IMG/VR virus record: IMGVR_UViG_2537562194_000017
DNA: 5,845 bases
Reading direction: 5' to 3' (one strand)
Source of the DNA: a virus
Taxonomy: Duplodnaviria; Heunggongvirae; Uroviricota; Caudoviricetes
Shown here: positions 3,001 through 5,845 of the stretch, one piece after another
Position numbering within the stretch: the stretch's first letter is position 1
Layout: each line of letters starts with the position of its first letter
Made by a program: the position numbers

Positions 3001-5845
3001 ACCGCACCCGTTTGTGCGCCCGGCATTTGATGTGCGCAGTGAACAGGCGGCACAGGTGGCGATTGCTCGGATGAACCGGGCCATTGATGAGGTACTGAGA
3101 CGATGACGGAGGCGGATTTGTATCCTCATCTGGCGCATCTTGCCGGCGGGCAGGTGTACCCGTATGTGGTCCCCCTGCTGGATGGCAGGCCGTCGGTGGC
3201 GCTTCCGTGGGTGGTTTTCAGCCTGATTTCATCGGTGTCGGCGGACGTGATGGGCGGGCAGGCGGAGTCCTCAGTGTCGGTGCAGATAGACGTTTATGCC
3301 GGGACTGTGACGCAGGCGCGTCAGATACGTCAGGACGCCCGTGAAGCCATAATGCTGCTGGCCCCGGGATCCGTCAGTGAAATGCAGGACTATATTCCGG
3401 AAAACCGCTGTTACCGTGCAACCCTGGAGTTTCAGGTCACGGTGTGACTTTTTCTTTTTTTCTACAAAACCCATACCCCGCCGCGTGCGGGTTTTTTATT
3501 ATCAGGAGGCAGAATGTCTGCTTTGTATGAACGCTCACAGCTGACGCAGGTGATGATTTCATCTGCCCCGGCGACTGCTGAAACTATGGATAAGGCGGAA
3601 TATCTGCGCCTGGACTGCACCATCAAGGAAGTCCAGTTCACCGCCGGTCAGAAACAGGATATTGATGTGACCACGCTCTGCTCCACAGAGCAGGAGAACA
3701 TCAACGGTCTGGGGGCGTCGTCCGAGATTTCCATGTCGGGTAATTTTTATCTGAATCAGGCCCAGAACGCCCTGCGTGATGCCTATGACAATGACACGGT
3801 GTATGCGTTTAAGGTGCAGTTTCCGTCCGGTAAGGGCTTTAAGTTCCTGGCGGAAGTGCGTCAGCACACCTGGTCATCCGGTACCAACGGCGTGGTGGCT
3901 GCAACGTTCTCACTTCGCCTGAAGGGTAAACCGGTGTCCTATGTGGTACCGCTGGCGTTTGTGAAAAATCCGGAGAAGACACTTACCGTGAATACCGGTG
4001 CGCTGCTGACAATGTCAGTCAGTGTCAACGGGGGAACGCCGCCTTATAAACACGCCTGGAAGAAGGATGGTCAGCCGGTAGAGGGACAGACTACTGACAC
4101 TTTCAGTAAAGCCAATACGCAGTCAGGTGATAAGGGGGCTTATACCTGCGAGGTAACGGATTCTGCAGAACAGCCGCAGAGCATTACCTCTGATGCGTGT
4201 ACAGTAACGGTTAATGGTGCGGGCGGATAAGGCTTATGGCAAAAGATCTGAAAACACTGGCGCTGGCCAGACTGTCGGGGTTCCGTCATAAAACGGTGAA
4301 GGTGCCGGAATGGGGTAATGTCAGCGTGGTGCTGCGGGAGCCTTCGGCAGAGGCCTGGTATCTGTGGCAGGAAGTGCTCAATGGTGATGGAGAGGATGAC
4401 GATACCCTGTCGGTGGTGGCGAAAACCCGCCGTAACCTGGAAGCGGATGTGACGCTGTTCTGCGATGTCCTGTGTGATACTGACCTGCAACGGGTGTTCA
4501 CTCCGGACGACCGTGAGCCGGTGCTGGCCGTCTATGGTCCGGTACATGCCCGGTTGCTGCGTCAGGCACTGGAACTGATCGCTGATGCAGAGTCGGCCAG
4601 AAAAAAGTAGCCCGCCCGGAAATTCGCTTTCTGATGCGACTTGCGCTCCGTCTGGGGCGCACCTTATCCGAACTGCGGCACAGCCTGAGTGCGAGCGAGG
4701 CGATGATGTGGATGGAGTTCGACAGGGTATCCCCGCTGGGTGATGAGCGCGGGGATATCCGTAATGCACAGATCGTGAAAGCGGTTTTCGGGGCACAGGG
4801 GATGAATGTTGCACTGAAGGACGCCATGCTCTGCTGGGGCGAGGATGAGGATAAGCCGGAGGTGGATCCGTTTGCGGCGCTGGAAGACGCGCTGAGCCTT
4901 GCAGCAATGTCATAAATAATGATGAAAACCTGCTGTGGCAGGTTTTTTTTGCCCGGAGAAAGGTGAATGGCGACGTTACGTGAACTGATTATCAAAATTT
5001 CGGCAAATTCGCAGTCATTCCAGTCGGAGATCCAGCGGGCGTCCCGTATGGGCAGTGAATATTACCGGACCCTGCAGAATGGCGGGCGTCAGGCCGCTGC
5101 GGCAGCCCGGGAGCAGCGACGTGCCCTGGCAGAACTGAACAGCCAGTTGACGGAAATTCGCGGTTCTGCTGTCGGAATGGCTGGCGCGTTTGCCGGTGCC
5201 TTTGCCACCGGACACCTGATTTCACTGGCGGATGAGTGGAGTTCCGTAAATGCCCGTCTGAAACAGGCATCACAGTCATCCGATGAATTTTCGTCATCAC
5301 AGAAAGTGCTGATGGATATCAGTCAGCGGACAGGCACGGCATTTTCGGATAATGCGGCCCTGTTTGCCCGTTCGGCTGCCTCGATGCGTGAATATGGTTA
5401 CAGTGCCGGTGATGTACTGAAGGTGACGGAGGCCATTTCCACGGGGCTGAAAATCTCCGGTGCCAGTACGGCTGAGGCGGGCTCGGTGATCACCCAGTTC
5501 AGCTAGGCGCTGGCACAGGGTGTGTTGCGCGGTGAGGAATTTAATTCGGTCAATGAAAGTGGTGACCGGATCATTCGTGCACTGGCTGCAGGCATGGGCG
5601 TGGCCCGTAAAGATCTGAAGGCGATGGCGGACGATGGTCAACTGACGGCGGATAAAGTCGTGCCCGCGTTAATCAGCCAGCTGGGGACATTGCGTGATGA
5701 ATATGCCGCCATGCCAGAAACGGTCTCTGACGGGATCACAAAGGTGGAAAACGCCTTTATGGCCTGGGTGGGCGGTGCGAATGAGGCCAGCGGGGTGACA
5801 AAAACGCTCTCCGGCATGCTGAACGGTGTTGCCGGCAATATTGAT

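Follow-up and report, generated by a model that had tools for sequence, protein, structure and literature searches.

An amber codon replaces a conserved glutamine in the tape measure gene of a lambdoid prophage from Escherichia coli O111:H-

The stretch of DNA analyzed here (the window, 5,845 nucleotides, IMG/VR virus record IMGVR_UViG_2537562194_000017) carries a run of phage head and tail genes and ends inside the gene for the tail tape measure protein (TMP). The genes upstream of TMP are arranged in the HK97-type, lambdoid order: the C-terminus of the portal protein, a repeat-containing open reading frame (ORF), a head–tail connector, a head closure protein, an HK97-gp10-like protein, a gp17 tail completion protein, a major tail protein with an Ig-like C-terminus, the tail assembly chaperone G, and protein T. 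TMP starts at ATG 4967, and its frame is interrupted at codon 180 by an amber codon, TAG, at 5504-5506, where the wild type has glutamine (Gln180, CAG). The translation around the stop reads ...AEAGSVITQFS*ALAQGVLRGEEFNSV..., and the same frame stays open for another 113 codons until the window edge. Translation thus reproduced what the original prediction, made from the sequence alone, had claimed for this frame. In the public draft, the two halves of TMP are called separately, as hypothetical proteins or TMP fragments, and the call for the downstream half begins at TTG 5525, 19 nucleotides past the stop. The coordinates of the main features are collected in Table 1.

The gene was identified as a tape measure by its match to the TMP_3 domain (PF20155) and by its position in a head–tail morphogenesis cluster, directly after a chaperone pair with a −1 frameshift site, in agreement with the original prediction. 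In a Pfam search, the TMP_3 profile was split colinearly by the stop, with positions 2-98 before it and 100-191 after it. When the halves were joined and the stop was read as Gln, the match covered positions 2-191 of 192 with 197.5 bits (E = 2.4e-58). Because the two halves are colinear around a single column, the TAG represents a substituted codon inside a gene and not a gene end. A boundary between two separate genes was ruled out by this split of one Pfam domain together with 98 homologues that span the site.

These homologues, each of at least 400 residues, came from a HMMER scan of 1.84 billion representative proteins. At the aligned position, 64 have Gln, 28 have Lys, 3 have Arg, and Glu, Gly, and His occur once each; none of the 98 ends at the stop to leave a separate downstream gene, which was the alternative arrangement that had been envisaged. 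Every relative at 50% identity or more has Gln, within the motif Q-[FL]-S-Q-A-L-x-x-G-V-L-R-G-E-E-F-N-S. The orthologue codons are AGT CAG in O111 strain 11128 and AGC CAG in Stx2 phage 1717, and CAG is also found at codon 180 in E2863 and Stx1a_1602, so the proposal that a conserved Gln codon within a TMP motif had been lost was well founded. The proteins of strain 11128 (WP_000212952.1) and phage 1717 (ACI43162.1) likewise comprise 1080 codons with an N-terminal PF20155 domain. TMP genes of the HK97-like and lambdoid Stx group share 96-99.9% nucleotide identity with the window gene and, like it, follow a G/G-T pair, standing before the minor tail genes M, L, and K; unlike it, they are uninterrupted and have CAG at codon 180.

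Table 1. Features of the amber codon, its gene, and the adjacent chaperone genes, in window coordinates
Feature	Position	Strand	Basis or remark
In-frame amber TAG replacing Gln180 (CAG) of TMP	5504..5506	+	CAG in orthologues; TMP_3 position 99 of 192
CTAGG, mutated Dcm site (wild type CCAGG); 5504 is the inner C, the one that Dcm 5-methylates	5503..5507	.	
N-terminal 179-codon TMP fragment (EIH91734.1, ECJB195_5169)	4967..5506	+	ends at the amber codon
Continuation of the TMP frame, 113 codons	5507..5845	+	cut by the contig end
Tail assembly chaperone, lambda gpG-like (PF06222)	4236..4610	+	E = 1.5e-60; just upstream, as expected for TMP
A_AAA_AAG slippery heptamer, −1 frameshift for G-T fusion chaperone	4601..4607	+	sequence
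Tail assembly protein T frame, −1 relative to G (PF06223)	4634..4915	+	

An exact match of the 179-residue product to a single record (EIH91734.1, "hypothetical protein ECJB195_5169 [Escherichia coli JB1-95]") identified the window as the whole of contig AEZV02000032.1 (5845 bp) in assembly GCA_000194355.2, from E. coli JB1-95. The AEZV project is O111:H- strain JB1-95, sequenced at the J. Craig Venter Institute (JCVI) (PMC3359367). The same strain, under the name 95JB1, comes from the 1995 Adelaide outbreak of hemolytic uremic syndrome; the genomes of this strain and of its outbreak sibling 95NR1 were subsequently completed with PacBio, and the single-nucleotide polymorphism (SNP) calls of that project agreed with Illumina data (PMC6602927). 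We found the identical TAG in the finished genomes of 95JB1, 95NR1, and the O111:H8 strain 8B, an Idaho clinical isolate sequenced by another laboratory. RefSeq, through the Prokaryotic Genome Annotation Pipeline (PGAP), labels the gene "phage tail tape measure protein, pseudo, internal stop" in all three (EC95JB1_RS26550, EC95NR1_RS26565, and KP516_RS24870, respectively), and these loci share gene, codon, and TAG with the window. In the finished sequence, the frame continues to codon 1080, this TAG being the sole internal stop of the 3243-nucleotide gene in all three alleles. They differ from the intact 11128 orthologue at three nucleotides: T537C, C538T, and the synonymous G2211A. The uninterrupted frame of about 1080 codons expected of this TMP group is therefore broken at codon 180 in the window, 95JB1, 95NR1, and 8B, and intact in 11128, phage 1717, and a second copy of the gene in 95JB1 at 2.21 Mb. 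Sequencing error, one of the explanations that the original prediction had offered, was ruled out: the TAG was found independently by JCVI, the PacBio project, and a third group, in four assemblies (the JB1-95 draft, 95JB1, 95NR1, and 8B) from at least three laboratories.

Set against the finished 95JB1 chromosome, the window turns out to combine sequence from at least two paralogous prophages. The copy at 2.21 Mb is matched at positions 1982-2246 and at scattered sites as far as 3935, and from about 2260 on most sites follow a prophage at 4.96 Mb, which is the sole match throughout the TMP part. Judged by this pattern, paralogous prophage modules have been collapsed into one consensus in the window. 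It differs in this from the RefSeq pseudogene loci, being a chimeric draft version in which the upstream part agrees with a different prophage copy. A miscalled base, or a base created by the collapse of paralogous copies, has to be weighed for such a contig: eight window sites match neither the 2.21-Mb nor the 4.96-Mb copy, none of 5426 complete E. coli genomes (95JB1 included) contains an exact copy of the 66-mer at 5150-5215, and nanopore consensus errors are known to concentrate at Dcm motifs (PMC6591954), of which codon 180 forms part. However, exactly one of the three TMP copies in 95JB1, the one at 4.96 Mb, has the TAG, and the TMP part of the window agrees with that copy at 32 of 32 sites diagnostic for it, TAG included. 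Together with the recurrence of the TAG in the PacBio genomes, the JCVI draft, and 8B, this makes an artefact of sequencing or assembly highly improbable.

The stop is rare. In the 5426 complete E. coli genomes, a 63-mer spanning the site matched 2662 places, distributed over 1048 genomes, versus five genomes, with one place each, for a 41-mer centered on the T: 95NR1, 95JB1, 8B, PS2Canimalfeces12 (hereafter PS2), and PA8. The T (nucleotide 538 of the gene) falls at 4963348 of CP021335.1 in 95JB1, and the site lies at 5115378 of CP145946.1 in PA8 and at 545780 of CP180600.1 in PS2. Every 28-base seed of this 41-mer includes the T, so that each match carries TAG. It had no match among GenBank phages, versus 92 records with this TMP, none among IMG/VR contigs, versus 78 with CAG, and none among metagenome contigs. 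The orthologous region is present at 99% identity or more, without TAG, in 44 other O111 genomes. On these counts the stop is unconserved, and programmed readthrough or recoding was rejected.

The original prediction had also raised a phage propagated on an amber-suppressor host. In 95JB1, an outbreak isolate, glnX and glnV (in the glnX-glnV cluster, located by synteny) both have the wild-type anticodon CTG, which means that this strain has no supE; this status was read directly in the 95JB1 genome and not in 8B, PA8, or PS2. For the other suppressors, 41-mers with the single-base CTA anticodon of tyrT/V, tyrU, leuX, serU, and trpT were searched in the 5426 genomes, and no tyrosine, leucine, serine, or tryptophan amber-suppressor allele (supF-, supD-, supP-, or su7-type) was found in the five TAG-bearing ones. 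The matches in this census were a tyrosine-tRNA with CTA in OV2 and NCTC9967 and serU-CTA in DSM 498, all laboratory or collection strains, and a leuX or trpT CTA allele was found in none of the 5426 genomes. A glnV/glnX-CTA probe served as positive control, matching 157 of the 5426 genomes; the 57 matches listed were all K-12 laboratory derivatives. Among the tRNA genes of the prophage itself (anticodons CAT, TCG, and TCT) there is no suppressor. The glnV/glnX anticodons and the censuses, in which no host suppressor tRNA appeared, led us to reject an amber mutant on a suppressor host for 95JB1.

A CAG-to-TAG change in a tail gene does have the form of the classical lambda amber mutants, and a conditional-lethal phage mutant made or propagated in a laboratory would look like this. 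We give that explanation practically no credence, as the sequence comes from the chromosome of an isolate from a 1995 outbreak (PMC6602927, PMC3359367), the Idaho clinical isolate has the allele too, no suppressor is present, and the TAG is absent from all phage records.

A working TMP would still be made if the stop were bypassed, whether by a host suppressor, by near-cognate tRNA-Gln readthrough, or by re-initiation at GTG 5522 or TTG 5525, the latter being the start chosen by the gene caller. The 900 codons downstream of the stop are still intact. A lambda-type virion requires only a few TMP molecules, and the residue inserted by near-cognate readthrough would most probably be the native Gln. 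On the other side stand the lack of supE in 95JB1 and of the other suppressor alleles in any TAG-bearing genome, and the poor conservation of the stop, present in none of the deposited phages, which argues against programmed recoding. A re-initiated product would be without half of the conserved TMP_3 domain, intactness downstream is expected of a young mutation anyway, and other TAG-bearing prophages have further tail-gene lesions. With nothing in support of readthrough or re-initiation, we consider a bypass very unlikely.

The prophage that carries the stop in 95JB1 is about 44 kb long and lies between a dusA fragment (4.9356 Mb) and an integrase beside intact dusA (4.9797 Mb); its cargo includes the effector genes espW, espM2, and DUF1076 (NleG-like) genes. 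Its early region is broken, with an IS1203 remnant in the expected place of the replication genes, and the genes for DUF968, a DNA methylase, and an HNH endonuclease are cut short. The amber codon is therefore one more lesion in a prophage already without autonomy, and strain 8B has an additional one, a frameshift in the minor tail gene L. The features of a nonsense pseudogene are found together: a stop inside a conserved domain, a sense codon in the orthologues, and other lesions in the prophage that arose independently of it. A defective tail gene in a cryptic prophage, the remaining consequence put forward in the original prediction, is what the degraded prophage in the finished genomes and the RefSeq pseudogene call both indicate. 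The pool of defective lambdoid prophages in enterohemorrhagic E. coli (EHEC) is similar, being likewise paralogous and partly decayed, with type III secretion system effector cargo (here espW, espM2, and nleG-like genes), IS-mediated early-region deletions, and near-identical morphogenesis modules in co-resident prophages.

In the dusA prophage of 95JB1, the antiterminator (Q) gene is followed by the usual three tRNA genes (locus L006, 4303-4554). PGAP calls the first of the three tRNA-Ile, and ARAGORN gives its anticodon as CAT, that is Met, as expected for a lysidine-modified Ile tRNA. Downstream of the Q/tRNA region lies a SASA-family esterase gene, with no stx genes.

Translation of the interrupted gene would stop after residue 179 of 1080, halfway through the conserved N-terminal TMP_3 domain, and 83% of TMP would be removed. 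Since the tape measure is required for tail assembly in this phage type, the dusA prophage would be unable to make its own TMP and hence to supply its own tails. Polarity from premature termination may also lower the expression of downstream tail genes. Complementation in trans is conceivable, as the 2.21-Mb prophage of 95JB1 has an intact paralogous TMP that differs at 102 of 3243 nucleotides (about 97% identity). We are confident, though short of certain, that the TAG is a genuine Gln180-to-amber nonsense mutation in the TMP gene of a lambdoid prophage with HK97-type morphogenesis genes, in dusA of the Shiga toxin-producing E. coli (STEC) O111:H- strain JB1-95/95JB1, that it would cause loss of function, and that deamination at a Dcm site is its most likely origin. 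As such, it is an ordinary nonsense pseudogene and already known, having been flagged by RefSeq in the finished genomes.

Dcm recognizes CC(A/T)GG and 5-methylates the second C, which becomes T on deamination. In the wild type, codon 180 lies in the context AGC-CAG-G, which contains CCAGG, and the changed base is the inner C. The CCAGG form is found in 76 of the 78 IMG/VR copies as well as in phage 1717 and Stx1a_1602. Dcm specificity and the amber hotspots of lacI, which are C-to-T changes at the second C of CCAGG, are described in the summary that PMC12606429 gives of the work of Coulondre, Miller, Farabaugh, and Gilbert (1978). A Dcm homologue, M.Eco95JB1Dcm, is reported in 95JB1 (PMC6602927). 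The CCAGG at codon 180 is presumably methylated, and spontaneous deamination of its 5-methylcytosine is the most likely cause of the amber codon. Codon 180 resembles the lacI hotspots in the base changed, in the conversion of CAG to TAG, and in the repeated hits at one site. It differs from them in that Dcm dependence was shown experimentally for lacI, whereas for TMP it is suggested by context and by recurrence in natural genomes, and in that the nearest O111 orthologue of TMP has TCAGG. The CTAG at 5503-5506 is also the only CTAG tetranucleotide in the window, and related loci of 12-18 kb have 0-3.

The original prediction attributed the stop to a single C-to-T change. Measured against the nearest intact orthologue, in 11128, this did not hold as it stood, because two adjacent bases differ (AGTCAG versus AGCTAG), but outgroups suggest an AGCCAG ancestor from which a single C-to-T change would suffice. 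At nucleotide 2211 of the gene, JB1-95 has A like every outgroup allele and 11128 has a derived G, and C537 is the majority state of the family among the IMG/VR copies. Because the JB1-95 clade keeps the outgroup state at nucleotide 2211, the common O111 ancestor probably had AGC CAG. In the simplest history, the lineage of JB1-95, 95NR1, and 8B would have undergone one C-to-T change at the Dcm cytosine of this ancestor, and the 11128 lineage would have acquired C537T and A2211G.

The same amber codon is found in three prophage types at separate chromosomal sites: in dusA, beside potB, and at ydfJ. The three TAG alleles of TMP differ from one another by 79-123 nucleotides, and each has a much closer CAG relative. 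The 11128 and JB1-95 alleles are 3 nucleotides apart, and an IMG/VR locus with CAG (L055) differs from PS2 at 2 nucleotides in 4694, one of which makes the TAG. Given the separate sites and the near-identical CAG relatives, the pattern favors a parallel origin of the three alleles, and a hotspot at a Dcm site would explain, in our view, how the same amber arose in unrelated prophages. To place codon 180 among other possible stops, we counted 111 positions in the TMP gene at which one transition makes a stop codon, 4 of them in Dcm context, and searched the 111 mutant 41-mers together. Stops at codon 180, one of the 4 Dcm-context positions, were found in 5 genomes representing 3 prophage contexts; codon 804, outside Dcm context, was hit in 1 genome and the other 109 positions in none, a contrast softened by the fact that the 41-mers came from one allele only and detection was uneven across sites. 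If the three events at codon 180 were independent, the probability of 3 out of 4 events landing on one of 111 sites, all taken as equally likely, would be about 3e-4.

Several further observations weigh against our reading. 5-Methylcytosine was not detectable by the PacBio study of 95JB1 (PMC6602927). Strain 11128 and about 44 other O111 genomes have TCAGG, which is not a Dcm site, so the Dcm route for the O111 allele depends on the AGCCAGG ancestor or intermediate proposed above. The TAGs of PA8 and PS2 could be artefacts if these genomes were assembled from nanopore reads; the single CTAGG in their 40-kb loci, next to 83-101 intact CCWGG sites, counts against a basecalling artefact. Past the stop, the O111 gene differs from its intact orthologue by one synonymous change and has no decay signal yet. 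The lack of further decay downstream would make the mutation young, and TMP appears to have become a pseudogene recently, after the prophage had lost its autonomy. Finally, TMP genes are recombinational mosaics, PS2 and PA8 share a local haplotype, and spread of one TAG tract by gene conversion would weaken the argument from recurrence.

Under such spread, the amber codon would have arisen once and moved among lambdoid prophages by homologous recombination or gene conversion, without recurrent mutation at the Dcm site. The TMP alleles are evident mosaics, and PS2 and PA8 have an identical haplotype over nucleotides 405-573 of the gene, including T516, C537, and T538. A tract with its left end between nucleotides 516 and 537 turns the 11128 allele (C516, T537, C538) into the JB1-95 allele in one event, which accounts for both adjacent O111 differences. 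However, 95JB1 has the TAG in one place only, with no donor copy resident elsewhere, and a phage carrying the TAG would be transfer-defective. The O111 allele also differs from PS2 and PA8 at nucleotide 516, just 22 nucleotides from the stop, each TAG allele has its near-identical CAG relative, and the mutated base, the inner C of CCAGG, is the one position of the codon predicted to be hypermutable. We regard spread from a single origin as unlikely, though deserving of some weight, and prefer recurrent deamination at the Dcm site.

The TAG-bearing prophages of PA8 and PS2 had features of their own. The PA8 prophage has a second amber codon, a CAG-to-TAG change at codon 48 of the major tail gene (locus L013, 18031-18747), equivalent to window positions 3655-3657; its context is ACAGG, which is not a Dcm site, and the J gene of this prophage is broken as well. 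In PS2, a pig isolate, an ompC-type porin gene (locus L012, 23266-24399) lies among the tail genes of the TAG-bearing prophage, after the gene downstream of TMP and before that for minor tail protein L.

Other features were noted upstream in the window. From 4586 on, the −1 frame runs without a stop into the T ORF, and the slippery heptamer stands just before the stop of G; by its sequence and placement, the heptamer is the conserved signal for the programmed −1 frameshift that yields G and G-T in long-tailed phages. In the 51-nucleotide gap between the T gene and TMP, a hairpin, AAAACCTGC-TGTG-GCAGGTTTT, followed by more T residues (4925-4950), resembles an intrinsic terminator; this putative terminator was flagged by the scan on the minus strand only. 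The major tail protein (3514-4230) has a C-terminal immunoglobulin-like domain (Ig_2, Ig_3, I-set; residues ~150-233) after the tail-tube domain. The ORF at 595-1980 overlaps the end of the portal gene by ATGA (595-598) in the −1 frame and contains, at 811-1511, a 162-bp (54-codon) tandem repeat with 4.3 copies at 96% identity, whose copy number varies among prophage copies and gives length differences of 162 or 324 bp. PGAP calls the portal gene and this ORF together "portal protein, frameshifted" in every copy examined, and the phage 1717 record has two ORFs; with the split in every copy, two ORFs are probably the normal state.

Beyond the existing annotation, this analysis traces the window to its source, excludes error and suppression, proposes a Dcm hotspot as the explanation with evidence of recurrence, and warns that the contig is chimeric. 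Short draft contigs from EHEC genomes with many prophages can be chimeric consensus sequences. A CAG-to-TAG change at CCAGG in an enterobacterial assembly may be a real hotspot mutation or a methylation-linked basecalling error, and each case should be checked. With its Dcm context, codon 180 offers a neat instance from nature of the amber hotspots classically ascribed to 5-methylcytosine.

A bolder idea is that Dcm-driven mutation at codon 180 of this TMP family may act as a natural hotspot by which tail production is turned off time and again in effector-carrying lambdoid prophages, in a way that is reversible through gene conversion from paralogous prophages or leaky through near-cognate tRNA-Gln readthrough, which would put back the native residue. 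We think it quite unlikely; if it were true, such prophages would be "parked" rather than dead and could be mobilized with the help of a co-resident prophage. Beyond careful annotation, the amber codon itself matters little: an effector-carrying prophage of an outbreak STEC would be unable to build its own tails. This bears on whether cargo such as espW, espM2, and the nleG-like genes can move without helper prophages.

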